A stretch of 64,000 nucleotides of DNA from IMG/VR virus record IMGVR_UViG_3300020308_000002, positions 1-64,000 of that record; one strand, written 5' to 3'. The notes below the pieces were generated by a model, which saw only the letters and a list, made by a program, of their open reading frames with translations, ran no database searches and was not told the DNA's origin. Positions within the stretch are counted from its first letter, which is position 1, and the number at the start of each line of letters is the position of its first letter. Both the position numbers and the translations under genes were made by a program. The DNA is from a virus. Lineage: Duplodnaviria; Caudoviricetes. This document shows positions 18,132 to 46,310 of the stretch, in pieces.

Positions 18132-18345
18132 CTACTAATTCTATAGCCTGAAATTTATTAGTTTTATAAACATACTCATGGATCAGCCATGTATGCGTGT
18201 TAAAAATTAAAGTTGATAAAATTACGACTCCAACAGGGTCGAAACCTCTCTTATCAGTGATAGCACCAAGAACAGCATATCCTTGAGCTGTATGCTCCCT
18301 CATCTTTTCAGGAGTAATTTCAATTAAATGTTTTTTTCTTGCCAT
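18124..18345 (-). CDS. Hypothetical protein
   Basis: TAATG-coupled. Confidence 0.65.
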   Translation of the reverse strand: MARKKHLIEITPEKMREHTAQGYAVLGAITDKRGFDPVGVVILSTLIFNTHTWLIHEYVYKTNKFQAIELVDE

Positions 18346-20498: not shown

Positions 20499-21290
20499 CC
20501 TATTTATACGAGTTATATCTGTATTACAAGTCTACCGAGTCGTTAAAGGCGTTAGCCCTGGTTTTCTGATGTTAAGCGGCGGATAAGCGCTTCGTAGCTC
20601 TTTATCGCGTTTTCTCCTCATGAAGCGTTTTAACTCCCCTTAAGAGGGCCTCGCGGGAAAATCTCGAAAAATGTTGCTCAGCGAGATATACATCAAACAC
20701 CCTCGCCTAGTTGAAGCACCGCTCAAACAAAAAAAAGAAGGGCATATGTAATGAAGCGACGCAGCAAATGTTAAACAGCAGAAGACTTATGTTAGTTAAT
20801 TGTTTAACAACAGAAGAACTATCTGACTACGTTTAATGTTTAGCTGCGGAAGTTTGCGTTGCGACGTGTTACGCGACCGCGTTCAAGGGTGCAATCCATA
20901 GTTATCTTTTGCATAATCTATTGTTTCCCTTACGAGCCTGAGTTAGCAACAGTTATCCCACGCATCCCCGCATACATAGCGCATTTATCGCACTGCCCCT
21001 TCTTCGCTCTCTCGAGGGCGTCAAACCCTGTGACACTAGGCTAACACGTACCCAGTTGCTAACCGCTGCGCTCGTTTCACTCGCTTGCTTATAATGATTC
21101 ACTCCAAATTGCTACGCAATTGAGTTCACTTTTCCCATGGCTCCCCATGCGCTCGCTAATGCTCGCTTTGTGTTCGCATTTTGAGTTACCTGTTTACATT
21201 GTGACGATCACGCCTACTGTTTAGTAGATTAGTTGACAAATATAGCTACTTTGTGGAGATAATGCAAGTTTTGATGTTAGTGCGATGTTA
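20499..21290. other. Non-coding divergence region (candidate genome end or control region)
   Basis: ~790 bp without a convincing ORF between divergent blocks; short CGCTCG/TCGC-rich repeats; TTGACA at 21233-21238. Confidence 0.5.
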
Positions 21291-21291
21291 A

Positions 21292-21313
21292 TGCAGTAAT
21301 TCAACAATGCATT
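21292..21313 (+). promoter_or_regulatory. Conserved cassette motif copy 1 (TGCAGTAATTCAACAATGCATT)
   Basis: Immediately followed by ATG 21314. Confidence 0.85.
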
Positions 21314-21562
21314 ATGTCTATCCAAGTTAAGAGTATTACAACTAGCACCGCTAAGTATGTATACAGCTTGAACAAGGAATTTAAGACTTGCGTGATCACT
21401 TACCTGCCTAAGGCTAAGAATCCACGCAATAAGGTGTATGCTCAGTGCTCGCTGTTGATGTCCCTTGAAACAGCCAAAGAGCACTGGAAGAAGACCCAGA
21501 CCTTGGCTGGTCATCCCAGATACACCACTAAGAAGGTCAAGAAACTCCCTGCCGCTAGGTAG
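21314..21562 (+). CDS. Early small basic protein
   Basis: Flanked by motif and terminator. Confidence 0.75.
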   Translation: MSIQVKSITTSTAKYVYSLNKEFKTCVITYLPKAKNPRNKVYAQCSLLMSLETAKEHWKKTQTLAGHPRYTTKKVKKLPAAR

Positions 21563-21570
21563 GGTTTTTT
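21547..21570 (+). terminator. Rho-independent terminator
   Basis: CCCTGCC-gcta-GGTAGGG-TTTTTT. Confidence 0.8.
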
Positions 21571-21572
21571 AT

Positions 21573-21594
21573 TGGACTAATTCAACAATGCATT
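21573..21594 (+). promoter_or_regulatory. Cassette motif copy 2 (TGGACTAATTCAACAATGCATT)
   Basis: Directly before ATG 21595. Confidence 0.85.
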
Positions 21595-21819
21595 ATGAAA
21601 TCATCTTCGATTCTCTATCCTATTTGTGTTTTTTGTTTCTCTTGGGGAACAATCATGTTAGTAAACCAGCTTGTGACTGGCTTGTCTGCCTCTACTCAAA
21701 TGCAATGCGCTGGAGCGGAGTATTTGAGAGGCGATCAACGCGCTCAAAAGCTGGCTTTAGTTGAGTTTTGCCGCGATAATGGTTACTACGTTGGTAAGCA
21801 TTTGCAGCAAGAGCAATAA
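21595..21819 (+). CDS. Early small membrane protein
   Basis: N-terminal hydrophobic helix; starts right after the motif. Confidence 0.7.
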   Translation: MKSSSILYPICVFCFSWGTIMLVNQLVTGLSASTQMQCAGAEYLRGDQRAQKLALVEFCRDNGYYVGKHLQQEQ

Positions 21820-21822
21820 CCC

Positions 21823-21860
21823 AAAGCCCCTGTCTAGGTCGTCCTGGATGGGGGTTTTTT
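21823..21860 (+). terminator. Rho-independent terminator
   Basis: GCCCCTGTCTAGG-tcgt-CCTGGATGGGGGT plus T run. Confidence 0.8.
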
Positions 21861-21862
21861 AA

Positions 21863-21884
21863 TGTAGTAACTCAACAATGCATT
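21863..21884 (+). promoter_or_regulatory. Cassette motif copy 3 (TGTAGTAACTCAACAATGCATT)
   Basis: Directly before ATG 21885. Confidence 0.85.
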
Positions 21885-22040
21885 ATGAATGAGTTGTGGG
21901 CAGTCATCCTAGATAGGAAGTTTTCTAGCTTCCATCGATCTAGAGAGGATGCAGAGTCTGAAGCATTCTTGCTTGAGGTCGTCCTGTGCGAACCTAATAA
22001 ACCTAGTCATATCGTTGACTACGTTCAGTTATCTGCTTAA
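21885..22040 (+). CDS. 51-aa early protein (MNELWAVILDRKFSSFHRSREDAE...)
   Basis: Manual translation; not in the ORF track. Confidence 0.7.
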   Translation: MNELWAVILDRKFSSFHRSREDAESEAFLLEVVLCEPNKPSHIVDYVQLSA

Positions 22041-22070
22041 GTACATCAGTACTACCCCTTATCCACTACG

Positions 22071-22115
22071 TTCCCCTCGGTCGGTCTGGTCTTCAGGTCG
22101 GTCGGGGGAATTTTT
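22071..22115 (+). terminator. Rho-independent terminator (long G-U-rich stem)
   Basis: TTCCCC...GGGGGAA followed by TTTTT. Confidence 0.7.
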
Positions 22116-22117
22116 AG

Positions 22118-22139
22118 TGCAGTAACTCAACACTGCATT
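22118..22139 (+). promoter_or_regulatory. Cassette motif copy 4 (TGCAGTAACTCAACACTGCATT)
   Basis: Perfect TGCAGT/ACTGCA arms; pyrimidine-rich leader to ATG 22159. Confidence 0.85.
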
Positions 22140-22158
22140 ATTCTCTCTATCCACCACC

Positions 22159-22338
22159 ATGGTTAACGATTTAATTACTGAGTATCTTGCTCAAGAGGAT
22201 CACGCTTTGTTTTCCCTTCTTAGAGCCACTAGTAATTATGCGGCAAGTCTTGGTACCACTGACGAGTTTAACTACAGGTCGACTGTAGCCCTCCGAGCTC
22301 GTTCCTTCGGTATCGACCCAGCCGCCTTCCTCGATTAG
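22159..22338 (+). CDS. 59-aa early protein (MVNDLITEYLAQEDHALF...)
   Basis: Manual translation; not in the ORF track. Confidence 0.7.
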   Translation: MVNDLITEYLAQEDHALFSLLRATSNYAASLGTTDEFNYRSTVALRARSFGIDPAAFLD

Positions 22339-22355
22339 GTCAGCCTATCCCATGT

Positions 22356-22390
22356 ATCCCCTGCCAGTTCTAGCTGGTGGGGGTCTTTTT
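22356..22390 (+). terminator. Rho-independent terminator
   Basis: CCCCTGCCAGT-tcta-GCTGGTGGGGG followed by a T run. Confidence 0.75.
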
Positions 22391-22392
22391 AT

Positions 22393-22414
22393 TGCAGTAA
22401 TTCAACACTGCATT
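22393..22414 (+). promoter_or_regulatory. Cassette motif copy 5 (TGCAGTAATTCAACACTGCATT)
   Basis: Perfect 6-bp arms. Confidence 0.85.
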
Positions 22415-22435
22415 GTTCTCTATCTCCACCTAAAA

Positions 22436-22882
22436 ATGGTTGCAACTCCAACTAAAACTCCTGCAAAAGCATCCGCCAAGGCTGCTACTCCAGAGCGTAT
22501 CGATGATGACGTCGTTATTGTCGGTCTGCTCAAGAACACACAGGAGTTTATTGGGCAAGGTGAAAACGCTAAGCGTCAAGCCAAAGGCTTCCTTAGCTGC
22601 AGTTCTACTGACACCTTCAATGATCAGAAGATCAACATCGACTTACCTGTCGACAACTTTATTGCTAGTGACAACGGTGTTCCATTAGCCCAAGAGTTGC
22701 TTGATTTACAAGCCAAGCACTCAGAAAAAGGCCAGTGGGTCAAAGTTGCCTTAAAAGGCTTCTGGGTTCCTTCTTCTAGCCCACAGTTAATGGGAGGCTA
22801 CATGAAGGCTCAGTACAAGGCTCTTAGAGTTAAGAGTTACAAGATCATCAGATCTAGTCTTGACAAGCCTGTCACTAAGTAA
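22436..22882 (+). CDS. Early hypothetical protein
   Basis: Start moved to ATG 22436, downstream of motif copy 5. Confidence 0.75.
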   Translation: MVATPTKTPAKASAKAATPERIDDDVVIVGLLKNTQEFIGQGENAKRQAKGFLSCSSTDTFNDQKINIDLPVDNFIASDNGVPLAQELLDLQAKHSEKGQWVKVALKGFWVPSSSPQLMGGYMKAQYKALRVKSYKIIRSSLDKPVTK

Positions 22883-22889
22883 CTTACTT

Positions 22890-22919
22890 GCCACCTAGCT
22901 TCGGCTGGGTGGCTTTTTT
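22890..22919 (+). terminator. Rho-independent terminator with TTCG tetraloop
   Basis: GCCACCTAGC-TTCG-GCTGGGTGGC-TTTTTT. Confidence 0.9.
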
Positions 22920-22921
22920 AT

Positions 22922-22943
22922 TGCTCCAACTCAACATTGGTCA
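22922..22943 (+). promoter_or_regulatory. Cassette motif copy 6, degenerate (TGCTCCAACTCAACATTGGTCA)
   Basis: AACTCAACA core at the same distance from the terminator. Confidence 0.6.
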
Positions 22944-23212
22944 TGAGGTACAACGACATAACTGGTCAGCCACAGCCTGGTCAGTCCACTGAAACTTTTA
23001 TTCCTTTTGGTTGCATATCAGCCAAAGAAGCTTTATTACTCATAGATGCTATGCAACGATCTAATGCGAGAGGATTAGAACGTGTACATGCTGAGATGAT
23101 TAGAGCTGTTGAATGTTATTTCGATCATACGGATAATAAGGTTCGTGAACTTGACAACTGTGAAACCAAGCTCAAGCAGTACGCTAAGCAACAACAGAAG
23201 GTGAAATCATGA
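22943..23212 (+). CDS. Early hypothetical protein
   Basis: ATG 22943 preferred over TTG 22937. Confidence 0.7.
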   Translation: MRYNDITGQPQPGQSTETFIPFGCISAKEALLLIDAMQRSNARGLERVHAEMIRAVECYFDHTDNKVRELDNCETKLKQYAKQQQKVKS

Positions 23213-23385
23213 GTGACCGACGTGGTCTCGAAGGTCTTCCTAAGAAGATCAACCCTGCTAAGACTGAATGGATAGGCACTCACCTAACTACCAGTCTTTA
23301 CGAGGAAGAAGAGATTCCAGACAGAGAAGGCTATGCCGCAAGCTGTCTAATGGAAGACGATACTCTTGATGAATCCCACATATAG
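23209..23385 (+). CDS. 58-aa acidic protein (MSDRRGLEGLPKKINP...)
   Basis: ATGA overlap; manual translation; not in the ORF track. Confidence 0.65.
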   Translation: MSDRRGLEGLPKKINPAKTEWIGTHLTTSLYEEEEIPDREGYAASCLMEDDTLDESHI

Positions 23386-23391
23386 ATACAC

Positions 23392-23418
23392 AGCTCCACC
23401 TTCGGGTGGGGCTTTTTT
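23392..23418 (+). terminator. Rho-independent terminator with TTCG tetraloop
   Basis: AGCTCCACC-TTCG-GGTGGGGCT-TTTTT. Confidence 0.9.
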
Positions 23419-23420
23419 AT

Positions 23421-23442
23421 TGCACTAACTCAACAGTGCGTC
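23421..23442 (+). promoter_or_regulatory. Cassette motif copy 7 (TGCACTAACTCAACAGTGCGTC)
   Basis: Arms GCACT/AGTGC, a compensatory change relative to copies 4 and 5. Confidence 0.8.
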
Positions 23443-23460
23443 CTCCTACTTACTATTCAA

Positions 23461-23853
23461 ATGACACCACCTAACTCAAAGTGGGACATTGCACCTGTTC
23501 AGCCCGGTGAACTGGTTGACTATGACCCAACTAACCACGACACTAGTAATAAGTACGAAAATTTCAAAGAATCCTTCTTAAATTTCTCTACTCAATTCCT
23601 TTTTGTCTGTTATTTCATGGCTCGCTTCACTCAAGAACTTTGCCATAAGCTTTTACCTCCTATTGTTCGCTTCCTCTGGCAGATCAAGAAGCTAGCAGCT
23701 AGGTATGAATCTTGGGCAAAGAAGAACAAGCCATTTATGCAAATTATTGAATATCTATACAGTTTTAGAAGAGAAGACTATTGGGTCGGAAAGACCAAGA
23801 CTGGACGATTACAGAAGCCTGATGGCACCTTCCTCAAGAAGACTAAACCCTAA
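23461..23853 (+). CDS. Early hypothetical protein
   Basis: ATG after a pyrimidine-rich leader. Confidence 0.7.
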   Translation: MTPPNSKWDIAPVQPGELVDYDPTNHDTSNKYENFKESFLNFSTQFLFVCYFMARFTQELCHKLLPPIVRFLWQIKKLAARYESWAKKNKPFMQIIEYLYSFRREDYWVGKTKTGRLQKPDGTFLKKTKP

Positions 23854-24062
23854 GCCCCGTATGCCACTTCAGGTTGATAACTGCCTGACATTGTATATTC
23901 AGGTTCACTATTCTCAGGAGACATAGCATTGAAAGTCTTCTGTAAAGACGGTATCAACTTGTCACTCCTAAAGCTTCGACGCAGGCTATCCAAGTTACCA
24001 TCCTTCAAACCTTTTTTCAGGTCAAGATCAAATAATTCTCCTGCAAATCTTAGGTCGTCCAT
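23850..24062 (-). CDS. Hypothetical protein
   Basis: ATG ORF converging on the previous gene. Confidence 0.55.
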   Translation of the reverse strand: MDDLRFAGELFDLDLKKGLKDGNLDSLRRSFRSDKLIPSLQKTFNAMSPENSEPEYTMSGSYQPEVAYGA

Positions 24063-24201
24063 TCTTTATCCTCTCTTACTTGACAAATCCGAACAGTCTC
24101 CTGCTGAGATATATAGGCAGAAGAGTGAGTATTCCCATGAGCCTCCATGGAATACAAGATCTTTCTTGCCATGTCACATTCAGCAGGAGTTGGATTTTTA
24201 A

Positions 24202-24807
24202 TCATACTAAAGTGTTTGCTCTGTCAACAATTTGCTGCTCTGTGCTTTCTACGTAAGCCATAAGATCAAGTAGTCCTGAGCCTGCTGCAGTCAAAGCGGA
24301 ACCTCCCGCTACACCAGCTACACCTGCTCTTGCTACTTGTGCTTGTCTAAATGATGCTGTCCTCTGATCTGGAGATCCTCCCATAAATGTCAAGGCGTCA
24401 CCCACTGCTCCTGCTATATCTGCTCTTGTATTAGGCATTCCACCTAAAGCCGCTTGTATAGCAGTTCTGTCTCCTGGCTGTACTTGAGATAATACTGCCT
24501 TGGCATCTGCTGAGAAAGCGTCTGGATTAGTAATCATCCGAACAGGATTCCTACTCTGTCTTGCAACAATCGCTTCTGCAAGGCGTTGTTTATCCTGTTC
24601 TCCTATTAACTCATCTGTAGCAGCCTGAATCCGAGCATTCGTTCTGTTGGCACCAAAGTTGCTAACGTTTGCACCTGCTTCACGCAAAGCTTGAGCTATT
24701 GAAGCATCAGCCTGACCAACAGAAGGCACAGCATTCTGAGCAGCTAAATACCTTTTATTAATAGCTTGCTGTAATTGGTTAAGTCGAGTCTGTGGATTGA
24801 TGTTCAC
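24202..24807 (-). CDS. Ala/Gly/Gln-rich protein resembling the virion-block proteins
   Basis: GVAGVAGGSALTAAGSGLL near the C-terminus; opposite strand to its neighbours. Confidence 0.7.
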   Translation of the reverse strand: MNINPQTRLNQLQQAINKRYLAAQNAVPSVGQADASIAQALREAGANVSNFGANRTNARIQAATDELIGEQDKQRLAEAIVARQSRNPVRMITNPDAFSADAKAVLSQVQPGDRTAIQAALGGMPNTRADIAGAVGDALTFMGGSPDQRTASFRQAQVARAGVAGVAGGSALTAAGSGLLDLMAYVESTEQQIVDRANTLV

Positions 24808-24854
24808 GCCTTAAAAATTCTATCAATACATCTATATTAGGTGTATTTTTTTGG

Positions 24855-24876
24855 TGATCTAATTCAACAATGCATT
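24855..24876 (+). promoter_or_regulatory. Cassette motif copy 8 (TGATCTAATTCAACAATGCATT)
   Basis: Core intact, arms unpaired; restarts the plus-strand block. Confidence 0.75.
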
Positions 24877-24886
24877 TTATGTATTA

Positions 24887-25345
24887 TTGCGTAGATCTTC
24901 TGTTCACAACTACCAAACACCTATGACCCTACACTTGGGTACTAAATCGTTCTCGTTCTTCATCAGACCAGACGTATTTAATAAGACTGGTTTAATATCA
25001 GTCGGTTTCTGCCGTAACAGGCACACCAAAGCCTGCATGGAAGATCACATCACTCTTGGTGCAAGATCTGACACGCTTGCTGAATTCGTTGCCAACGAAG
25101 ATCCAACAAACACTTGTTCTGTTGACGGCAAGACATACTCAGCCAAGTCAATTGGTTGGGGTCGTGATGAACATGGTAATCCACAGAAGATTACATACTC
25201 AGCCGAGGAGATTGCAGCGAGAGCCAAGCTACGTGCTATCAACAAAGCCGAGGAAGAACTCAGGCGTCAGAAATTAGATCTCGAGATCAACAATGTTGAC
25301 GCTGACTCCGAGATTGTAGTTGACACCTTTTCTACACCCGCGTAA
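24887..25345 (+). CDS. Hypothetical protein (start uncertain: 24923 or 25037)
   Basis: ORF track; C-terminal coiled coil. Confidence 0.6.
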   Translation: MRRSSVHNYQTPMTLHLGTKSFSFFIRPDVFNKTGLISVGFCRNRHTKACMEDHITLGARSDTLAEFVANEDPTNTCSVDGKTYSAKSIGWGRDEHGNPQKITYSAEEIAARAKLRAINKAEEELRRQKLDLEINNVDADSEIVVDTFSTPA

Positions 25346-25465
25346 CTAACCGCGTAACTAGATGATGCTGGCGTTGTCGTTCTGCTGACATGACAGCGCC
25401 AGCTCTACCCAATCCTTGATTTCTGCGGCATCATTCGCAAGCAGCATATTTAATTATGAATATAA

Positions 25466-25879
25466 ATGAATTTAGTCCTGTTGCGGATAGTCCACGCAGT
25501 CAACACCTGCTTGAACTTATTGATGCCATCAAACAATCTCAAGCAACTTTACGATCTTCGGGAGACTCAAAGAATCAAGGAAAGATTGACACACTCATTA
25601 ACACAATCAACAGGAAACTTTATGCATCCTGAAGATCGGTATAGAATCAACCCCTTTCGTGGCGACTTCAAACGCCTATTTATTCATGACCTCAAAACAG
25701 ACCTCGCCTGGGTCGAAGACTTCGACTGTGAAATCGACGCAGGAAACCACTGCCTCAACATCTATTCCAGTGAGTACTTCGAAGGTACTCTCGAAAGATC
25801 TAAGGCACCGAATCAGCTCATTCGACTTAGCTCTTCAACATCAGAGCTCACTCAAAGACCTAGACCAAGCAATAGTTGA
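25466..25879 (+). CDS. Hypothetical protein
   Basis: ORF track; 3' part overlaps the next gene. Confidence 0.55.
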   Translation: MNLVLLRIVHAVNTCLNLLMPSNNLKQLYDLRETQRIKERLTHSLTQSTGNFMHPEDRYRINPFRGDFKRLFIHDLKTDLAWVEDFDCEIDAGNHCLNIYSSEYFEGTLERSKAPNQLIRLSSSTSELTQRPRPSNS

Positions 25880-26372
25880 TCTAGAGAGTGAAGATCCTGT
25901 TAAGAACCAAGAAGCTGTCAGCAAGATTGAGGTGTACTTAGCTGATAAAGAGAACTTCGAGAACAAGGCTACAGACCTTCTCAACTTCTCGTTTGCTTTG
26001 ATAGCTATGGCTAATGCAAAGAAAGCAGAAGCAGACAGGCTGAAGAAACTAGCTATCCCAGAGCTAGCTAAAGCTTATCGATTACAGCAGCTAGTAATCA
26101 GATTATTCAGGACAATCATTAACGATGACAACAAACTGACTAATTACAGATTGCCTATGCATACAATCAAATCCATGATTACTTCGTCAGTACATGTGGA
26201 TGAGTACCTTTGCGATCCCGATAGTTTGCCAGATGAATTCAAAAGAACCAAAACAACGGTAAACAAACAATCACTCAAAGAGGCTTTCAAAGCATCTATC
26301 AAGAACAAGACAAAATCTCCATCATATGAAGGAGTTGAATTCATCCAAGAGCGCCAATGGAGAGTTGAATGA
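25686..26372 (+). CDS. Siphovirus Gp157-like / host-nuclease-inhibitor-like protein
   Basis: Coiled coil KKAEADRLKKL followed by DPDSLPDEFKRTKTTVNKQSLKEAFK...EGVEF. Confidence 0.6.
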   Translation: MTSKQTSPGSKTSTVKSTQETTASTSIPVSTSKVLSKDLRHRISSFDLALQHQSSLKDLDQAIVDLESEDPVKNQEAVSKIEVYLADKENFENKATDLLNFSFALIAMANAKKAEADRLKKLAIPELAKAYRLQQLVIRLFRTIINDDNKLTNYRLPMHTIKSMITSSVHVDEYLCDPDSLPDEFKRTKTTVNKQSLKEAFKASIKNKTKSPSYEGVEFIQERQWRVE

Positions 26373-26965
26373 GTGACAAGTATGACTTCTTTGCCTCTAC
26401 AAGCAAAGGAGCCAGTGAAGTAACTCTTACTCCAGTCTCCCCAGAGGCTATGAAGTTCATCCCTGAACTATTCCCTGATTTGAAACTCGGTCAGTCTGTG
26501 GTTTACAGCCTACGTGACCTGTATCAAATCGTTGACCTGTTTATTCCACCGCATTTTTCTATCAAATGGTTACCACCACTCCGACCTCCGTCTTCATCTT
26601 CACCTCGAACCCCCAGCTCAGCGCCAAGCCAGCTCAGAGGCAAGACGGCATCCACTATGCCTATTACAACGCCCCAGCAAAAAACGGAGGAGGGGGAGAA
26701 TGCTCCGTCAGCTTCCCCGAAAGCGTCAAAGACCATGTCAAGGTTGGGCAACCCTTCAGTGTTGACGGCACACCCATCGCAGGACTTGGATACACCACTC
26801 GCATCCAATACGATGAGAGATACAAGTGTTCCATGCTCATATTTGACTACATCAAACAAGAAAGCCACCAAGAGGTGGAAGAAAGTGCTCCGTTCATATC
26901 AACACCTTTCCCTACCGAGGGATGGGGAGATGCAGACGGTATCACTGCAACTGCCCAGCCAGTAA
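26369..26965 (+). CDS. Hypothetical protein with overprinted S/P/T-rich tail
   Basis: ATGA-coupled start; overlaps the next ORF by 400 nt. Confidence 0.55.
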   Translation: MSDKYDFFASTSKGASEVTLTPVSPEAMKFIPELFPDLKLGQSVVYSLRDLYQIVDLFIPPHFSIKWLPPLRPPSSSSPRTPSSAPSQLRGKTASTMPITTPQQKTEEGENAPSASPKASKTMSRLGNPSVLTAHPSQDLDTPLASNTMRDTSVPCSYLTTSNKKATKRWKKVLRSYQHLSLPRDGEMQTVSLQLPSQ

Positions 26966-27255
26966 GGAACGGTATTCCTAGAGCTGGAGTCAGAGCACCG
27001 CAAGCCAGAAGAAATGCAGCTCGCAGTGAAACAGAACACGCTAAACGTGTACGTGAAGCTGGTGATCGTTTAAACCCACGATTCAAAGAGCTTCTTGACG
27101 AGTACATCAACGGTCAAGTCTATGCCGCAGGCAAACTTGGATGCAGAGAACCTATCCGTCAAGACACAATTCAGAAACATGTTACTTCAGTAGGTATTGC
27201 TTACGTTGACTATCTCAAGTCACAAGTGCAAACTGAAAACATCATTGAAGATTAA
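26566..27255 (+). CDS. Hypothetical protein
   Basis: 229 aa, globular-looking composition. Confidence 0.7.
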   Translation: MVTTTPTSVFIFTSNPQLSAKPAQRQDGIHYAYYNAPAKNGGGGECSVSFPESVKDHVKVGQPFSVDGTPIAGLGYTTRIQYDERYKCSMLIFDYIKQESHQEVEESAPFISTPFPTEGWGDADGITATAQPVRNGIPRAGVRAPQARRNAARSETEHAKRVREAGDRLNPRFKELLDEYINGQVYAAGKLGCREPIRQDTIQKHVTSVGIAYVDYLKSQVQTENIIED

Positions 27256-27258
27256 CTG

Positions 27259-27501
27259 ATGACAAGTCACAAAGTTTTTGAATTTTCCTTGCTTTTTAGT
27301 AAAAAATGGCCTTTTATTCGAACTTCTACCAAAACATTGGTGGAATATGACAATACTTGGCCTATCAAAAGTGACTATCCACCCCCATTCACCCTCGATT
27401 CCTACAACATCCAGTGTCAAGATGAAACATTTAACACAACCACGGTACACAACGTCATTTGTGAAGACTCTGAACCCCAAAGTACAGTTTTTGTTGACTG
27501 A
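27259..27501 (+). CDS. Hypothetical protein
   Basis: ATG 3 nt after the upstream stop. Confidence 0.5.
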   Translation: MTSHKVFEFSLLFSKKWPFIRTSTKTLVEYDNTWPIKSDYPPPFTLDSYNIQCQDETFNTTTVHNVICEDSEPQSTVFVD

Positions 27502-27640
27502 GATTGCCAAAGACAGTCAATACGACGAAGCACAAGTGCTTGAGAAACTGGTGGGCAAGATGGAAAAATACGTTGCCAACGGAGGCAGCATTAAAGATTC
27601 AGTTAAAGATATCTTCGCTGGCATAGGTGCTGAATTATGA
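27422..27640 (+). CDS. Hypothetical protein
   Basis: Start moved to ATG 27422; ATGA-coupled to the next gene. Confidence 0.6.
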   Translation: MKHLTQPRYTTSFVKTLNPKVQFLLTEIAKDSQYDEAQVLEKLVGKMEKYVANGGSIKDSVKDIFAGIGAEL

Positions 27641-27906
27641 CTCGTGCCAAACACACTACATCCCTCCTTCGGGAGGGGCTTGGGGTCAAAGTCGCTATCG
27701 ATGACACCGAGTTTCATGCTTGGATTCCTTGCAAGAATCCTTCCGAACAATGGTCAATGGATCCTAGGATTCGTTCCTATCTTTTCATTAAAGGAAAAGG
27801 AGGAAACATGAAAATATTAAAACTATCAGAAGCTTGTACAGAGATCCAATGTATCCAAGCTATGAGTACAGATAAGTCAGTTGTCGTTCAATCTTTAGTT
27901 CCATGA
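27637..27906 (+). CDS. Hypothetical protein
   Basis: Coupled ORF. Confidence 0.65.
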   Translation: MTRAKHTTSLLREGLGVKVAIDDTEFHAWIPCKNPSEQWSMDPRIRSYLFIKGKGGNMKILKLSEACTEIQCIQAMSTDKSVVVQSLVP

Positions 27907-28115
27907 AACAACAACAAATCAAATTTCTCATCAAGCCAGATGGCACAGTTGACGAGGAAGTTATTGGTGTTACTTGCAATGAATGCACAGCAATTACCAA
28001 GCATGTAGAAGCTAACCTAGGCACCATAACTAAGGTGACTTATAAGCCTGATTACTATGCACCTTGTGAGATTCGAACCGTCACTCAACACGAGTCAGAG
28101 TCTCTCGTCGACTGA
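27903..28115 (+). CDS. DUF2997 family protein
   Basis: IKFLIKPDGTVDEEVIGV...C..IT..VEANLG...KPDYY. Confidence 0.75.
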   Translation: MKQQQIKFLIKPDGTVDEEVIGVTCNECTAITKHVEANLGTITKVTYKPDYYAPCEIRTVTQHESESLVD

Positions 28116-28211
28116 GCTATTGATCATAGCTGGTACATAAAAACTCAACATTTCTTTATCTTATGAGCTTCATAGACTACATAGGATTCTTTTCTTTATT
28201 CATTATTCTTT

Positions 28212-28430
28212 ATGGCATCCAGAGAAAAGCAATCCATCGACGTAACAACAGGAGAACATCAAATGCCAGTCATTGCTGACCAGCTACTACCTAGAGATGC
28301 TACTCAGTTAGATGAAGTAGATCAGTATCTAGAGTGTGCTACGGATTGTGCTATCAACGACAAGGATTGCAAAGATGCCTGCTTAGAAGAAATGAAAGAC
28401 GCCGCCCACTTAGACGTTCCTTCTTACTAA
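28212..28430 (+). CDS. Small acidic Cys-rich protein
   Basis: VDQYLECATDCAINDKDCKDACLEEM (C-x3-C-x6-C-x3-C). Confidence 0.65.
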   Translation: MASREKQSIDVTTGEHQMPVIADQLLPRDATQLDEVDQYLECATDCAINDKDCKDACLEEMKDAAHLDVPSY

Positions 28431-28954
28431 TACTGATCTCTAATAACTGATCGAATCATCCAACAAGCTTTGGATGTTTGAGCTAAGAGTTCAGCTAAAT
28501 AGTTAGCAACATCATATAGGTCAGATGCTTCAACTGCTGGTTGAATCAATTTGATCATATTTTCTAGCGTCCCTAAGTTGTCGTAGTACACCTTAAGTTG
28601 AGCCGTGCCATCGTATGACTCAACATTTTTAAAACAAGAACCTAACGCATCCTTCAAACCACAGGCACACATCGGCATCCAATAATTCAAGATTCTTACA
28701 AATTCTCCTAATTGATCGAACTGTTCTAAATGCAGGTCATATTGATCTTTTAGGAAATTATGAATATCTAAGAAGTTTGAACCTTCGTAATTGAAGTGAA
28801 TGAGATGTGATTGTGTCTGTAATTCCTTAACAAAAGAAGCTAATAAAACCAATTTCTGAGAAATATCACTGGATTGACAAGACTCTGGCTTGCTATTCAT
28901 CATTAGCACTAGATTGTGCTGCTCAGGATTGTTTGAGGTCTCTGCTGTTTCCAT
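28427..28954 (-). CDS. dps: Dps / ferritin-like protein
   Basis: H-x11-H (HFNYEGSNFLDIH) and D-x3-E (DQLGE) ferroxidase pattern. Confidence 0.8.
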   Translation of the reverse strand: METAETSNNPEQHNLVLMMNSKPESCQSSDISQKLVLLASFVKELQTQSHLIHFNYEGSNFLDIHNFLKDQYDLHLEQFDQLGEFVRILNYWMPMCACGLKDALGSCFKNVESYDGTAQLKVYYDNLGTLENMIKLIQPAVEASDLYDVANYLAELLAQTSKACWMIRSVIRDQY

Positions 28955-28993
28955 AGGTTGACTGCTGTTGACCTTAGTTTAGGTTCTTAAGTT

Positions 28994-29015
28994 TGCAAAC
29001 TTTCAACTATGCATT
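28994..29015 (+). promoter_or_regulatory. Cassette motif copy 9 (TGCAAACTTTCAACTATGCATT)
   Basis: TGCA-N12-TGCA spacing kept; ATG at 29031. Confidence 0.7.
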
Positions 29016-29030
29016 ATTTCTGCTTCGTTT

Positions 29031-29669
29031 ATGAACTCTGCAATTATTCAATCTCCAACAGGTATTCATCCTACGAGACCCAACCAAAAGATCCAAACTT
29101 ATGGATTAGATCTTAATGCCCAATGGTTTGGCTGGGGTGCTAAAGCTGGTAGTCCAGAGTTTACTCTTGCTCCAGATGAAGGCATTAGCTTCGTAGGTAA
29201 ACCCATCGTTGGAATTGATTGGCATACAAGCCAAGGCGTCTCATGTCCTTACTTCAGGTTTGCTTTCCTTGAGCCAACTGAAGATCGTCAGACAAGACTG
29301 TCAGTAATCAAACTTAAATGCAATGGCAGTTCAACAAGTAACGGTAAGATCCTCGTGCAAAATCATGCTGCCTGTCTCGTTGGTGCTCTTCATGAGCTAG
29401 TACAACGAACCATCTTGTCCGACCTTGACTTGGAAGATATTTCAGGCACATTGTATGCAAGGAAAGGAGAAGGACGTGAAGTTGTAAACCCAAGTACTGG
29501 CTTCAAAACCACGTTCAAAGGTACCTTCATCGATTGTTTCCTTGGCAACGATCAATTGCGATTCAAGCAAGCAGATAGAGAACTCATGGCTTTCCAATCT
29601 CAAGTCAATGATCTCGCTGCCTCATTACACCAACCAGCTCCTTTTTTACAATCAGTTTCTGATGAATAG
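29031..29669 (+). CDS. Hypothetical protein (beta-rich, possibly OB-like)
   Basis: 212-aa ATG ORF. Confidence 0.7.
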   Translation: MNSAIIQSPTGIHPTRPNQKIQTYGLDLNAQWFGWGAKAGSPEFTLAPDEGISFVGKPIVGIDWHTSQGVSCPYFRFAFLEPTEDRQTRLSVIKLKCNGSSTSNGKILVQNHAACLVGALHELVQRTILSDLDLEDISGTLYARKGEGREVVNPSTGFKTTFKGTFIDCFLGNDQLRFKQADRELMAFQSQVNDLAASLHQPAPFLQSVSDE

Positions 29670-29928
29670 CCACATACACACCTCTAACGGAGAAGTTTTG
29701 GAAATCCCTGATTCAATTCCTCCAGCAAGCCTATCTCAGTACAGGCAAAAACATTTCCTCAAAGAAATAACTAAACAGGAACTTCCCCCTGGAGGTGTCC
29801 TACCTAACTTGGAGTACATCCAATCTCATGTTCAAAGCATGAAACAAGAAGTTCCCACAATTCATCGACCTAAGGTCACTCGAATAGAGTTACTCATCGA
29901 TGAAATGATTAATACATTAAACTCTTAA
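29662..29928 (+). CDS. Hypothetical protein
   Basis: Start moved to ATG 29662, overlapping the upstream stop. Confidence 0.6.
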   Translation: MNSHIHTSNGEVLEIPDSIPPASLSQYRQKHFLKEITKQELPPGGVLPNLEYIQSHVQSMKQEVPTIHRPKVTRIELLIDEMINTLNS

Positions 29929-29941
29929 TTGCATTCCCACC

Positions 29942-31033
29942 ATGAATCAATCACCAGCTACCGTCATGCCTTACACCACCTCAGGGCTATGTACAAAAGA
30001 TGTAGAAGATCCCGGCTCTGAAACTTTCAGGCCTGGCAAAGTCACTCGAGCAGACGCTAAGTTCTTCCAAGGACTTAAATCCGAATGTCGAGAATGGCAA
30101 TCAACAGAAGAGCAATTGAAATCTATTGGTTGCAATTGGTTGGTCACTCCTGAACCTTTATATTCAAAAAGATACGACAGAACATACCCCGAGATTGTTA
30201 ATTGGTATACCAGTGATGGAGATCGACTAGGTCAATTCTCTAATTGCAGGCACATTATCCATCCTCAAGATGGTTTGAATTGGTACAAAGAGTTCATCCG
30301 TAAAACCAAAGCTGCTTTCTTGCAAGAACTCACGCTTGATGTCATAGGATATCTACCTGATCAAAGGGTTTTATATTTTGCATCCAAGCTGACTGACATG
30401 AATCCTGAAAGGTTGAAAGAAGTTGGTGATACAACTGATTTCTTCCTCATGTTTAGTATCAATTACATGGAACCTAGAGCTATGAAAGCTCAGATCTGGG
30501 CTAACGAATTAGTCTGTGACAATGGCATGACACGTCGAATCAGAGATGGTCAGGCAACTATTAATCACAGAAAAGCTCGTGGAGAAGTTGATGTCTACCA
30601 AGCACTAGAAGCTGCTGTACTAGAAGCTAAGCGACATGTGTACATCAAGGAGAGTTTCATAGATACTCCTTGTGATCTTTACGACGGAAAGAAATTAATT
30701 CGTACTTTCTTCAAAGATTTCATTCCAGAAGAAAATCGTAAATCTCAAATAGAGAATGTTTGGGAACCTGTGGATTCCAGATATATTCAACAACTAGAGC
30801 ATACTTACGTGCATGGCTTGATAGGTGGAGAATTAGAAACAAGAAAAGACAATCTCTTTCGTGTTCATTCAGCCATAACCCAATTTACGAGCCACCATAA
30901 GCGAGTTAGAAACGGTGATGATTCTAGATTTGCCAAACAATTGGATGGCAACCTGTCAAGAATCAACACTCAGTTCACCAAGTTCCTACAGGAACAAACA
31001 ACAGGTCACAATTACGATGCCATTTCGACGTAA
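29942..31033 (+). CDS. DUF932 family protein
   Basis: FFLMFSINY...ANELVCDNGM...INHR matches the DUF932 VCxNG signature. Confidence 0.65.
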   Translation: MNQSPATVMPYTTSGLCTKDVEDPGSETFRPGKVTRADAKFFQGLKSECREWQSTEEQLKSIGCNWLVTPEPLYSKRYDRTYPEIVNWYTSDGDRLGQFSNCRHIIHPQDGLNWYKEFIRKTKAAFLQELTLDVIGYLPDQRVLYFASKLTDMNPERLKEVGDTTDFFLMFSINYMEPRAMKAQIWANELVCDNGMTRRIRDGQATINHRKARGEVDVYQALEAAVLEAKRHVYIKESFIDTPCDLYDGKKLIRTFFKDFIPEENRKSQIENVWEPVDSRYIQQLEHTYVHGLIGGELETRKDNLFRVHSAITQFTSHHKRVRNGDDSRFAKQLDGNLSRINTQFTKFLQEQTTGHNYDAIST

Positions 31034-31283
31034 ATCAGGAAAGACTGAAGGTCCCCGCTTTCAAGCAGGGGATCGAGTCTATAAAGCTAAGAATGGTAAC
31101 ACTGGACGGAAAGATGGAATCATCGTTTCACGAGAGGACATCAATTACAAAAATGGAGCCACTCATAAAGCTTATTGGATTCGATTTGACAACAACCCTC
31201 GTTTACACCATCTTGAACAAAGACTCCTTAAACCAGTAGAAAATGGGCAAACACAAAAGGAAAACATACAGCCAAAAATATAG
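31017..31283 (+). CDS. Small SH3/KOW-like protein
   Basis: FQAGDRVYKAK...GIIV...YWIRFD; start moved to ATG 31017. Confidence 0.6.
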   Translation: MPFRRKSGKTEGPRFQAGDRVYKAKNGNTGRKDGIIVSREDINYKNGATHKAYWIRFDNNPRLHHLEQRLLKPVENGQTQKENIQPKI

Positions 31284-31354
31284 ACTAAGAGAAGGTAGCT
31301 ATAAGCGTTCCCTTCGCCACCAACTGAACACTGACGGTACCCACTTATTCCAAA

Positions 31355-31552
31355 ATGGACACATTGATGCTTCCGACGTTAACGCCTCGAGAAAGATTCC
31401 TAATGCAAATAGAACAAGCAGCTAAAGCAGTTCTATCTAAGCAACCTAATGCCTTCTGTAACCTCTACCCCTTCTCATCCCAATGCCAGATCCCAACCAC
31501 TTCTTTGAAGGTCGCAACCTTGAAGCCGACACAAAAGCAATACAAGAGTTAG
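31355..31552 (+). CDS. Hypothetical protein
   Basis: ORF track; start uncertain. Confidence 0.45.
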   Translation: MDTLMLPTLTPRERFLMQIEQAAKAVLSKQPNAFCNLYPFSSQCQIPTTSLKVATLKPTQKQYKS

Positions 31553-31755
31553 TCGATAGACCACAAGATGTCGAGTACTCCATCTCTGAACTTTTGTTTA
31601 TAAGGACAGCAATAGATCATGTACCAGCTACTAACAACGAAGAAAAGAAAGTTAAAGATACGATGATTTCTAAAACTAATGCATTTGTAAAAGAGATCAT
31701 GTATAGCAAGAACAAGACAAGAAACTCCCACTCCAGACTTGACCGACTAGATTAA
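31483..31755 (+). CDS. Hypothetical protein
   Basis: ATG ORF. Confidence 0.65.
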   Translation: MPDPNHFFEGRNLEADTKAIQELVDRPQDVEYSISELLFIRTAIDHVPATNNEEKKVKDTMISKTNAFVKEIMYSKNKTRNSHSRLDRLD

Positions 31756-31910
31756 GTTTATTGGCGTGGGAGTACTAGGAGAATAAGGGAGTACTCCTTG
31801 TAAGCCCAAGCTAGATCCTCTGGGTTTGGTGGAGCTCAGAGGATTCCAGTCTTTACTTTACAAATCCACAAAGATAAGTTACTCTCCTCTTGGGAAGTGA
31901 ACAGCCTATT

Positions 31911-31945
31911 ACCCTCTCCGTCTTGCATAGCGGAGGGGGTTTTTT
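31911..31945 (+). terminator. Rho-independent terminator
   Basis: ACCCTCTCCGT-cttgcata-GCGGAGGGGGT-TTTTT. Confidence 0.8.
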
Positions 31946-31947
31946 CA

Positions 31948-31969
31948 TGCAGTAATTCAACGATGCATT
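31948..31969 (+). promoter_or_regulatory. Cassette motif copy 10 (TGCAGTAATTCAACGATGCATT)
   Basis: Directly before ATG 31970. Confidence 0.85.
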
Positions 31970-32662
31970 ATGCCTTTACTGGGGCCTGCATATTTTAAAT
32001 TCAGCCCTCCAAACATGAAGTTCAAAAAGACTCTGCAACAGCAAGGTCTTTATATTATTAATTTCAGTCTTCCTGCTGGTCGTGCCTGCCCTGGTGCCGA
32101 CAAATGCTGGGCAATGGCTACCGTTGATCCTGACGGTAAAGTCACATTAAAAAAGGGCGTGGACAACGAGTACATCTGCTATGCCGCTAAAGGCGAAGTG
32201 GTGTATGCGAATGTCCGTAGAGCTCGTGCTCACAACAAAGCACTTATCGACGGTCTATCTACCCATGAGATAGTCGACCTGATGCTTCTCTCTCTTGAGT
32301 TCAATTACAAAAGTCTCATCAAAAAAGCCAACTTATTTAGATGGCATGTCTCGGGAGATTTCTATCTACCTAAATACAGGGATGCGATTTTTATTCTTAC
32401 TCAAGAGTTACCCAACCTCATTCATTACGCCTATACGAAAAATCTTCCTTTATTCAAAGATGTCAAAAAACCTGACAACTTCAGACTCAACGCTAGTTGG
32501 GGTGGTCGCTTCGACCATATGATTAACTCCAAAGACTTTCCACGCTCTGCTCGAGTCGTCAAAGACCAAGCAGAAGCAGACAAACTCGGTCTACCAGTCG
32601 ATGTCAATGACTCCTTGGCATTCGGTGAGATCGACCAAAACTTTGCCCTTATTGATCATTAA
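31970..32662 (+). CDS. Phage gene product 88 (GP88) family protein
   Basis: FSLPAGRACPG, CYAAKG, FRWHVSGDFY, YAYTK. Confidence 0.8.
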   Translation: MPLLGPAYFKFSPPNMKFKKTLQQQGLYIINFSLPAGRACPGADKCWAMATVDPDGKVTLKKGVDNEYICYAAKGEVVYANVRRARAHNKALIDGLSTHEIVDLMLLSLEFNYKSLIKKANLFRWHVSGDFYLPKYRDAIFILTQELPNLIHYAYTKNLPLFKDVKKPDNFRLNASWGGRFDHMINSKDFPRSARVVKDQAEADKLGLPVDVNDSLAFGEIDQNFALIDH

Positions 32663-46028: not shown

Positions 46029-46064
46029 AAGACTGCTGATATAACTTAATCAGTGGTCTTTTTT
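46029..46064 (+). terminator. Rho-independent terminator after the primase-helicase
   Basis: AAGACTGCTGAT-ataactta-ATCAGTGGTCTT-TTTT. Confidence 0.8.
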
Positions 46065-46079
46065 ATTGAGCATTCACCA

Positions 46080-46310
46080 GCTTAGGTGCCAGGGTCTCTC
46101 CTTGTTCTTCCTTGTGCGGGAATAAGTCTTATTAAGAAGTACCAGGGGTGCCACCTTTCTACAAAACCTCTCTCGATTAAAAATAAAATTATTCACTTTT
46201 TTCTTCTCTTATTATTTACATATGTGAAGAAGTTAGTTATAAATAACAAGAAAGGAGAATATCTCTAAAAAAGTTTATAGACACCCTGTCACCCCCGGCA
46301 CCCTGGTTAC
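46080..46310. other. Candidate replication origin
   Basis: GC-rich inverted repeat ACCAGGGGTGCC (46141) / GGCACCCTGGT (46297) around an AT-rich core with an inner inverted repeat. Confidence 0.45.

Follow-up and report, generated by a model that had tools for sequence, protein, structure and literature searches.

We identified a repeated sequence unit that stands at the head of nearly all early gene groups of an uncultured Prochlorococcus-type cyanophage, studied here in a window of 64,000 nucleotides that is from a marine relative of cyanophage S-EIV1. A psbA gene in a syntenic relative suggests Prochlorococcus as the host. The early region shows repeats, predicted terminators, a fixed geometry and lineage-specific motif versions, canonical promoter features are absent, and no phage polymerase or sigma factor is detectable. 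We tentatively propose that each unit is a PeSL-like terminator-restart joint, at which a clade-specific promoter-type signal, read with a putative factor, would give rise to leaderless or short-leader mRNAs. An earlier reading made from the letters alone (the sequence-only reading) had suggested that a phage-specific cis signal is joined to terminators in front of early genes, and our analysis bears this out.

Results

Motif copies and their distribution

Motif scans were run over the full record of 74.6 kb. The 22-mer consensus with at most three mismatches gave seven plus-strand matches (versus zero expected, 100 shuffles), and a weight matrix recovered all ten copies listed by the sequence-only reading with scores of 17.9-36.1, the rest of the record reaching at most 11.4. 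The core TAAYTCAACA occurs eight times on the plus strand of the whole record and never on the minus strand. The motif is 22-26 nt long, with ten plus-strand copies in the window (Table 1), and is confined to one strand and to the early class; its final copy always precedes the GP88 gene, and no copy was found in the replication and late modules. Three divergent gaps also carry copies, and plus-strand transcription must begin there. Twelve matches in four picocyanobacterial genomes were mostly intragenic, and the motif does not mark a host regulon. Rfam returned nothing at E <=1 except two chance-level matches, and complementarity to 16S rRNA was no higher than for shuffled versions of the motif.

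Both Pfam and PHROG assigned the gene behind copy 10 to the GP88 family. Of the ten ORFs that directly follow a motif copy, eight had no match in either database; the two with a family assignment, the GP88-family gene and ORF 21595-21819, were also the only two of the ten with tblastn matches in the relative G014. The motif-headed early region is ORFan-rich, as in the PeSL hyperplastic region. Small, basic proteins (pI about 10) come first among the early products of the window phage and of the relative G002.

Table 1. Motif copies, predicted terminators and associated boxes in the early region
Feature	Position	Strand	Remarks
Tandem (G/T)ATGTTA boxes, 11 nt apart	21273..21290	+	Replace terminator and T-run before copy 1; second box runs into motif
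Motif copy 1	21292..21313	+	No upstream terminator; abuts ATG of ORF 21314-21562 (82 aa, pI 10.1)
Predicted terminator hairpin, T-run	21547..21570	+	After ORF 1 (21314-21562)
Motif copy 2	21573..21594	+	Abuts ATG of ORF 21595-21819
Predicted terminator hairpin, T-run	21826..21860	+	After ORF 2 (21595-21819)
Motif copy 3	21863..21884	+	Abuts ATG of ORF 21885-22040
Predicted terminator hairpin, T-run	22074..22115	+	16 pairs
Motif copy 4	22118..22139	+	Perfect 6-7 bp dyad, -7.6 kcal/mol; 19-nt pyrimidine-rich leader to ORF 22159-22338
Predicted terminator hairpin, T-run	22358..22390	+	
Motif copy 5	22393..22414	+	Perfect dyad, -7.0 kcal/mol; 21-nt pyrimidine-rich leader to ATG 22436 (ORF end 22882)
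Predicted terminator hairpin, T-run	22890..22919	+	
Motif copy 6	22922..22943	+	Degenerate, matrix score 17.9; final base is A of ATG of ORF 22943-23212, behind which ORF 23209-23385 is coupled
Predicted terminator hairpin, T-run	23392..23419	+	
Motif copy 7	23421..23442	+	C-G-swap dyad, -6.1 kcal/mol; 18-nt leader to ORF 23461-23853
T-run without GC hairpin, motif copy 8	24846..24876	+	Divergent gap behind minus-strand genes; 46-nt leader to ORF 24923-25345
Motif copy 9	28994..29015	+	Degenerate; divergent gap behind minus-strand Dps-like gene; 15-nt leader to ORF 29031-29669
Predicted terminator hairpin, T-run	31911..31945	+	
Motif copy 10	31948..31969	+	Last of class; abuts ATG of GP88-family gene 31970-32662

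Geometry of the terminator-motif joints

Copies 2-7 and 10 directly follow a GC hairpin with T5-7, as had been noted, at a gap of at most 3 nt. These seven hairpins of about 7-16 pairs are predicted intrinsic terminators, being GC-rich, followed by a T-run and located 3' of a stop codon on the coding strand. Between 20.4 and 32.7 kb, the six highest-ranked terminator-like sites all precede motif copies (the seventh, before copy 3, was read in the sequence), and each strong plus-strand terminator of the early region has a motif within 3 nt downstream. The record has just one further strong intergenic terminator on the plus strand (46059), and a motif-like stretch lies behind it. Joints of the copy-8 type keep the T-run and have no hairpin. 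In the relatives, up to 10 terminator-motif joints follow in succession, and expression by read-through alone would therefore fade fast.

The gapless alignment of 36 sites from four phages shows the T-run, the TG box and the 3' box as one rigid unit. The distance from motif to ATG is bimodal among 49 sites, with 0-6 nt in 29, 16-26 nt in 14 and 7-15 nt in two; the ATG stands 0-9 nt behind the motif in 30 of the 49, and the remaining 19 have 16-48 nt. The sequence-only reading counted four window copies abutting the ATG, to which copy 6 has to be added as a fifth, and its estimate of ~25-45 nt between U-tract and ATG is correct for the terminator-linked copies. No purine-rich Shine-Dalgarno site was found before the motif-headed ORFs, whose leaders are absent or pyrimidine-rich. 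The motif is fixed to the T-run, whereas its spacing to the ATG varies freely and falls into two modes, a geometry that suits a transcription start immediately behind the motif and then leaderless or S1-type initiation. In Prochlorococcus, 6-8% of primary starts are no more than 10 nt away from the start codon, and pyrimidine-rich leaders are used (PMC5607370).

Promoter features and candidate readers

In a consensus scan, none of the seven terminator-motif joints held a sigma-70-like site, in agreement with the earlier remark that the space is too short for a normal -35/-10 promoter plus leader. Only one promoter-like site lies close to a junction copy, with its end 17 nt ahead of copy 8, and the region holds fewer sigma-70-like sites than expected (12 versus 22.3 +/- 4.7). 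The gapless alignment contains no TAnnnT -10 column in all phages and no -35 box at workable spacing, and AT-rich sequence in the unit is supplied by the T-run alone. Several phages have -10-like boxes upstream of the junction copies (GATGTT/TATGTT at copy 1, TATATT/TATAGT at copy 8 and TAGTTT at copy 9), which can equally serve the divergent minus-strand genes. The tandem boxes upstream of copy 1 are kept in five phages.

Searches of 115 ORFs (roughly >=60 aa) of the 74.6-kb record against Pfam, PHROGs and NCBIfam returned no recognisable RNA polymerase, sigma factor or known transcription factor. The longest ORF in the record is at most 792 aa, and no plausible protein of the record carries a DxDGD motif. 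An 11.5-kb segment found only in G002, with psbA, lysozyme and endonuclease, likewise contained no RNA polymerase, sigma factor or transcription factor, and the surroundings of the repeats yielded no integrase or recombinase. A promoter for a phage-encoded single-subunit or two-barrel RNA polymerase is unlikely, as the 115 ORFs scanned held no matching polymerase family, but a very divergent enzyme may have escaped these searches. Given that neither a normal promoter match nor a recognisable phage RNA polymerase or sigma factor was found, we infer that some other, putative factor reads the signal.

Motif versions and cassette content in relatives

The same architecture was found in six relatives, each with its own motif version even at orthologous genes. 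Orthologous sites and orthologous cassette genes bear the version of the resident genome, a pattern of concerted evolution; the copy-8 position is occupied by each phage's own version, and the relatives carry orthologous copies before GP88. The frame common to them all is a T-run, TG, ~8 nt, TCAWCNGTRCA and then the ATG. The 5' half of the motif is variable and the 3' half is common to the phages, and phage-specific promoter families have the same pattern of a variable upstream half and a shared start-proximal half. The most conserved positions, T7/G8 and A18/C20, are spaced about one helical turn.

The proposal that the motif makes each gene a swappable cassette is not supported as it was put forward. 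Three relatives that are 87-89% identical in a neighbouring 717-aa protein have the same cassette order and spacing, and no swapping is seen among close relatives. Among distant relatives, early content turns over: it is almost wholly different, with just scattered cassette genes in common, while the DNA is 82-93% identical from the GP88 gene onward. The sole breakpoint examined adjoins the motif, as DNA homology with G014 begins at 31976, 6 nt into GP88 and just past copy 10. Gene 1 is not conserved between phages of one motif type.

Dyad and hairpin folding

According to the sequence-only reading, the motif arms pair around a constant loop. The stable dyads of copies 4, 5 and 7 are real; pairing, described as poor in copies 2, 6 and 8, is weak in all other window copies, and the constant-loop hairpin is not a conserved feature. 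Arm positions are 61-70% paired (in one test, 69.5% of cells versus 63.5% in shuffles). In G014, nine of ten well-conserved copies were folded; their MFE averages -0.06 kcal/mol, which is weaker than for shuffled sequences. Hairpin shapes differ, with an 8-nt loop in the window phage and a 4-nt loop in a relative. An N4-type hairpin promoter (5-7 bp stem, 3-nt loop) was rejected because loops span 8-14 nt and most copies barely fold, at energies near those of shuffled sequences. A partial dyad between columns 7-12 and 21-26 has 188 Watson-Crick pairs versus 170 +/- 4.5 in column shuffles and pairs better than slid registers. Pair 9-24 shows C-G to T-A covariation between phages, which is mostly one between-genome event, and G-U pairs are not in excess over A-C pairs. 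The base-paired stem is not kept in all members, and the motif is not a conserved RNA hairpin element.

None of 30 ATG-abutting copies forms a stable hairpin, whereas seven of the 19 copies set further from the ATG do (Fisher p = 6e-4; roughly five independent cases), and a leader of 18-26 nt always follows these hairpins. This confinement is easiest to understand if the mRNA holds both arms, which would place the start upstream of the motif and counts against a restart promoter.

Discussion

After analyzing these data, we suggest a putative mechanism for early expression. An intrinsic terminator would close one early message, and the T-run together with the 22-26-nt motif (TG box, ~8 nt, TCAWCNGTRCA) would open the next expression unit. 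The motif may act on double-stranded DNA as a promoter-type restart signal peculiar to the clade. The host RNA polymerase would read it together with a putative specificity factor rather than by plain sigma-70-type recognition, and transcription would start at or just past the conserved 3' box. Where the ATG is 0-6 nt away, a leaderless or near-leaderless mRNA would result, and elsewhere one with a 16-26-nt pyrimidine-rich leader; both routes are plausible because Prochlorococcus is not reliant on Shine-Dalgarno sites. This restart reading is supported by the position of copies at divergent gaps, by their class and strand specificity, concerted evolution and place outside the host regulon, and by a working precedent in PeSLs. 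However, an early promoter that needs a phage factor faces a bootstrapping problem, which speaks against it.

That joints of terminator and promoter exist and work in front of small early genes is known from the PeSL cassettes of T4-type phages (Arbiol et al. 2010, PMC2839356). The loose analogy drawn to them earlier is apt for the architecture: in both systems a stem-loop terminator and a start signal stand directly before small ORFan genes, in many copies of one orientation within a fast-changing early region, and single-gene cassettes are transcriptionally insulated (predicted here). In contrast, PeSLs have a strong sigma-70-like -35/-10, an AT-rich upstream region and a Shine-Dalgarno site, none of which is present in the window motif; the conserved part here is instead a 22-26-nt phage-specific motif reaching the ATG, the window phage does not belong to the T4 type, and close relatives show no sign of recombination between copies. 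Promoters of the T7, T3 and SP6 groups, and SPO1 and T4 late promoters, are also ~20-nt signals that are near-identical within a genome and different between relatives, with a variable upstream and a shared start-proximal part, often right after terminators. As is generally known, such phages bring their own polymerase or sigma factor, whereas none is detectable in this record or in the G002-only segment. In Thermus phage phiYS40, promoter-like elements lie a short fixed distance from the ATG, and mRNAs start at or near the start codon. The closeness of signal and ATG is shared, but in the leaderless units of the phiYS40 type the host polymerase reads a -10-type element that is still recognisable, and the window motif has no such element.

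A close rival, only somewhat less probable, is that the motif acts in RNA. The region would then be driven from a small number of host-type promoters ahead of copies 1, 8 and 9, and the U-run and motif would form a class-specific 5' element bound by a fast-evolving phage protein. Such an element could serve translation as an operator or as a target for shut-off, could mark a place of processing between two hairpins, or could work like a nut site and reload an antitermination factor after every terminator. The lambda nut site (boxA-boxB) with N, and T4 RegA/RegB, offer parallels, as a small fast-evolving phage protein there reads short RNA signals that are specific to one class, lie close to the 5' end or the start codon of early mRNAs and co-vary with the protein, and the first early proteins here are small and basic like lambda N. 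Yet nut occurs once per operon with a conserved hairpin, whereas here a long motif follows every terminator and the hairpin is optional; RegA/RegB sites are short, degenerate, and AU-rich or GGAG; and gene 1 is unconserved even within one motif type. Proximity to the AUG (0-6 nt in 29 of 49 sites) in genes without a Shine-Dalgarno site favours a role in RNA, as do the motif's own want of promoter features and the -10-like boxes upstream of three junction copies, although these boxes may serve the divergent minus-strand genes instead and the motif is locked to the T-run, not to the AUG, which is 16-48 nt away in 19 sites. Strong hairpins, missing at AUG-abutting copies and common with 18-26-nt leaders, and their variable shapes are expected of generic 5' stabilisers, not of a protein-specific fold; however, the dyad is not conserved, with G014 unfolded and no G-U excess over A-C, and 16S rRNA complementarity does not exceed that of shuffles. 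Moreover, transcription would need to read through seven to ten good intrinsic terminators one after another.

We consider it improbable that the motif is a double-stranded DNA operator for a dimeric regulator, of phage or host, that switches the early class while minimal promoter determinants lie elsewhere in the unit. An early-gene dyad element in T4-like cyanophages was reportedly described by Doron et al. in 2016; like the host CGRE1/PlmA element, it resembles our motif as a 21-22-bp dyad marking an early class in the same hosts, with ecotype-specific versions. The host CGRE1 site begins 55-57 nt upstream of the start site, and host regulator sites differ between Prochlorococcus ecotypes (PMC6191309), which could yield phage-specific versions without a phage factor. 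Here, in contrast, the ATG lies 0-9 nt behind the dyad in 30 of 49 sites, leaving no room for a -10 box and leader, and no -10 box stands at a fixed distance downstream because the ATG comes at once. A guessed CGRE1 pattern had no match in three of these phages, and the same pattern also missed host sites. The partial dyad, which beats column shuffles and slid registers, the covariation at pair 9-24 and the helical-turn spacing argue for an operator; the asymmetric conservation of the centre and 3' half, with varying arms, is the reverse of a typical dimer operator. Still more remote is the idea that the repeats are mainly recombination sites, with cassettes inserted, deleted and exchanged as between PeSLs or integron attC sites. 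Although early content differs among relatives, which share just scattered cassette genes, and the G014 homology starts right behind the motif, the three close relatives agree in cassette order and spacing, the repeats are short (about 26 nt) with no integrase or recombinase detected alongside, and shared cassette genes carry the resident genome's motif rather than a travelling version.

Following the restart reading one step further, we speculate that in this clade of Prochlorococcus phages, which has no recognisable RNA polymerase or sigma factor, a new and fast-evolving factor, phage-encoded or injected, might steer the host polymerase to a terminator-fused, non-sigma-70 promoter and so give mostly leaderless early mRNAs, a scenario that we regard as unlikely. 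If such a redirecting factor does exist, marine cyanophages would have an early transcription system of a kind not described before.

Results

Phage and gene layout

The window spans positions 1-64,000 of an IMG/VR record of 74.6 kb, which is an estimated 88% complete. The minus strand encodes the large terminase subunit and a 745-aa virion protein; the latter has a counterpart in Synechococcus phage S-EIV1 with 50% identity. The structural module, read leftward, reaches up to 20498, and small genes run rightward from 21314; next come DUF932, GP88-family, methylase, SSB, exonuclease and primase-helicase genes. The record carries several cyanophage markers (a cyanophage outer-membrane-protein domain, DUF3288 and a Dps-like gene). 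The syntenic relative G002 contains an 11.5-kb segment lying beyond the ends of our 88%-complete record, with lysozyme and LAGLIDADG endonuclease genes and a psbA whose product is 91-93% identical to Prochlorococcus D1. The lineage fits the uncultured marine S-EIV1 relatives known from metagenomes. That S-EIV1-related lineage has been described as widespread, uncultured and known from metagenome-assembled genomes only, in a report that does not mention promoters, terminators or motifs (bioRxiv 10.1101/325100).

Public assemblies contain many copies, at 95-100% identity, of the 717-aa protein encoded beside the early region, but relatives G001-G004 lack a homologue; we take it as a probable host-range (fibre-type) protein that is swapped between relatives. 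Across the whole window, Pfam identified a dATP/dGTP diphosphohydrolase N-terminal domain, dCMP deaminase, a Thy1 (ThyX) domain and a C5 methylase, a set that might indicate modified DNA; PurZ-type adenylosuccinate synthetase was absent among the Pfam families listed for the window.

Coordinates of features in the window and, where stated, in a relative
Feature	Position	Strand	Remark
Gene for 717-aa protein	18345-20498	minus	beside the early region
Gap between structural and early modules	20499-21313		815 nt, no plausible genes
AACAGTTATCC block	~20948-20958		within the gap
Motif copies 1-10	21292-31969	plus	numbered by position
Pyrimidine-rich leaders	22140-22158, 22415-22435, 23443-23460		behind hairpin-type copies
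Copy-8-type leader	24877-24922		ahead of operon with Gam-like gene
GP88-family gene	31970-32662		after copy 10
Start of DNA similarity to G014 (L324/L325)	31976		6 nt into GP88 gene
Isolated terminator	46059-46090	plus	behind primase-helicase gene
Genes with displaced homologues in G014	57836-58745
psbA of G002	L191:17021-18106

Copies of the motif and their terminators

All ten motif sites listed by the sequence-only reading were recovered with a weight matrix at scores of 17.9-36.1, compared with at most 11.4 in the rest of the record, and the 22-mer consensus with up to three mismatches gave 7 plus-strand matches versus 0 expected. Minus-strand matches all scored 11.4 or lower, and an antisense copy or sRNA partner in the genome was rejected. 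The claimed link to terminators held: copies 2-7 and 10 are each preceded by a GC hairpin with T5-7, and these hairpins rank highest among the terminator-like sites in the region. The motif was also seen to abut the ATG, at five copies rather than the four first stated. No hairpin lies upstream of copies 1, 8 and 9; the first of these comes after the non-coding gap behind the structural module, and the other two each lie behind minus-strand genes.

The gap itself contains the AACAGTTATCC block, which is invariant in five phages and similar to a DnaA-box half (TTATCC), and downstream of it a conserved GC-rich hairpin with a T-run and a TTGACA-like box; this stretch may be an origin or control region. 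Elsewhere, the isolated terminator is the only other strong intergenic one on the plus strand. It is followed by TTTTTTATTGAGCATTCACCAGC, similar to the motif over the latter's 5′ two-thirds and possibly a degenerate eleventh copy, and then by a GTG-start ORF.

Motif anatomy and leaders

Thirty-six sites from four phages aligned without gaps. A T-run (columns 1-4 or 1-6) is followed by a purine-rich dinucleotide, TG (columns 7-8), a variable box A (columns 9-12), a genome-specific stretch (columns 13-16) and box B, TCAWCNGTRCA (columns 16-26), which is common to the phages and has invariant A18 and C20. At copy 1, two tandem (G/T)ATGTTA boxes, 11 nt apart, replace the T-run in five phages.

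According to the ORF calls made in this analysis, the distance from box B to the ATG at 49 sites was 0-6 nt in 29, 16-26 nt in 14, 39-48 nt in four and 7-15 nt in two, with one site (G1_56913) miscounted at 16 nt instead of 4 nt because it shares its 30-mer with another site. Where the leader is longer, it is rich in pyrimidines, includes CCACC or CCUCC words and has no Shine-Dalgarno site. Such leaders behind hairpin-type copies occur in the window and in G001, G002, G004 and G015, and the words CCACC, CUCCACC and CCUCC have the same sense as the anti-Shine-Dalgarno sequence and are not its complement. The copy-8-type leader, with orthologues in the same four relatives, is 39-48 nt long and partly conserved; it is rich in G and T, contains a GTTGTTCAC word and could form a small structure or encode a leader peptide.

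Pairing within the motif

The sequence-only reading had the arms of most motif copies pairing as a hairpin. Pairing above the level of shuffled sequences and some stable folds were indeed found, and the fold proved to be optional and not the conserved feature. With the register fixed (columns 7-12 against 21-26), pairing reached 69.5% of cells, compared with 63.5% in shuffles and at most 56% in slid registers. Watson-Crick pairs were enriched among 51 distinct sites (188 versus 170 ± 4.5), with no excess of G-U over A-C pairs at these sites, and pair 9-24 switched between C-G and T-A, mostly between genomes. The nine G014 copies examined formed no structure (mean -0.06 kcal/mol, below the stability of shuffled sequence), and for most G001 copies the energy was no stronger than -2.6 kcal/mol. 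Stable hairpins (-5 kcal/mol or stronger) were present at 0/30 sites with an ATG within 9 nt and at 7/19 with longer leaders (Fisher p = 6e-4, representing about five independent cases). All seven had 18-26-nt leaders, and their shapes varied, from an 8-nt loop in the window to a 4-nt loop in a G004 copy. The partial pairing, the lack of a fold in G014 and the varying shapes therefore indicate that the linear sequence is conserved and that the hairpin is an optional extra.

Versions of the motif in relatives

Three metagenome contigs with 87-89% identity in the 717-aa protein had the same copies, order and spacing, with few substitutions. More distant syntenic relatives, retrieved through the portal-like protein and the GP88 gene, shared the architecture of hairpin, T-run, ~22-nt motif and ATG, with a different motif version in each phage. 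A version based on TTTTCATCAGTAC occurs 13 times in G001, and nearly the same motif type is found in G015 (7 copies) and G004 (6 copies). The version in G002, present 8 times, is based on AACAGTGCA, and that in G014, present 10 times, on TAYATCAACTGTGCA; G016 has a single copy. The architecture was absent from S-EIV1 and three relatives at ~45% portal identity, and scanning IMG/VR for the exact motif returned 90 single, chance-like matches and no second multi-copy genome.

The site before GP88 has a distinct version in the window, G001, G004/G015, G014 and G016, the unit there being identical at 15/26 positions between the window and G014 (manual count), and the copy-8 and copy-9 positions likewise carry each phage's own version. 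Orthologous cassette genes, such as that of a 51-aa membrane protein (67% identical between G001 and G002), bear the motif of the resident genome. This correspondence points to a trans-acting reader that would differ between phages or between their hosts.

A sharp mosaic boundary was also observed: from within GP88, window and G014 DNA are 82-93% identical, and almost nothing in the ~10 kb upstream can be aligned. Homologues of a further group of window genes sit between the DUF932 and GP88 genes in G014, which indicates a transposed block.

Candidate readers and signals rejected

Alignments and scans rejected a sigma-70 promoter. All plausible registers were tried, taking the T-run or TTG box as -35, columns 4-9, 12-17, 15-20 or 18-23 as -10, or the TG at columns 7-8 as the beginning of an extended -10, and every one failed in at least one many-copy phage or placed the start within the ORF. 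Sigma-70-like sites are depleted in the early region. Bacteroidetes-type (-33/-7), sigma-54, NtcA, CRP and LexA-like readings misfit in spacing (alignment judged by eye). Membership of a host regulon was rejected (12 matches versus 3 for the control in four picocyanobacterial genomes, nearly all within genes), as was 16S rRNA pairing in place of a Shine-Dalgarno site, at which the motif was no better than its shuffled versions. The motif matched no Rfam family. Family scans, which can overlook very divergent polymerases or sigma factors, found no recognisable RNA polymerase, sigma factor or known regulator in the record or the extra segment of G002, and gene 1 was rejected as a specificity factor, being unconserved between phages of one motif type.

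Discussion

The joint of intrinsic terminator, T-run, motif and ATG resembles in architecture the promoter-early stem-loop (PeSL) cassettes of T4-type phages and, by analogy, probably works like them; it falls outside the PeSL family because a sigma-70 promoter and a Shine-Dalgarno site are absent. The conservation pattern of the motif is similar to that of the phage-specific promoters of the T7 group, but no matching enzyme was recognised here. The motif also lacks the geometry of the dyad-plus-(-10) early promoters of T4-like cyanophages and of the host CGRE1 (PlmA) sites.

Overall, we tentatively favor the motif as a promoter-type signal that would restart transcription behind terminators, a reading of the sequence pattern to which we give somewhat less than an even chance. 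Restarting would explain why no strong early terminator lacks a motif directly behind it, and how genes downstream of 7-10 serial terminators escape silencing. A promoter-type signal would also account for the rigid T-run and two boxes combined with a free, bimodal distance to the ATG, and for the copies at divergent gaps. Leaderless initiation and S1-dependent initiation on pyrimidine leaders have both been reported as likely in Prochlorococcus (PMC5607370). Three points weaken the promoter reading: its reader is missing, the sequence is non-canonical, and hairpin strength is linked to leader length. This last link, together with the closeness of the motif to the AUG, would be accounted for by an element acting at the RNA level, which is possible but somewhat less probable; it would require efficient read-through or antitermination and leaves the lock of the motif to the T-run unexplained. 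An operator for a dimeric DNA-binding protein is less likely than either reading and, in our judgment, improbable, and a primary role in recombination is more improbable still, to the point that we give it little credence.

For the question of how phages without a recognisable polymerase start their programme in Prochlorococcus, the motif provides a precise handle, through which the early class can be defined gene by gene. A trans-acting reader evolving together with the motif is predicted. In the host, which makes no use of Shine-Dalgarno sites, the early mRNAs are further expected either to be leaderless or to share a 5′ RNA operator across the class. For this lineage, the motif can also serve in practice to mark early genes during annotation and to follow the exchange of modules.
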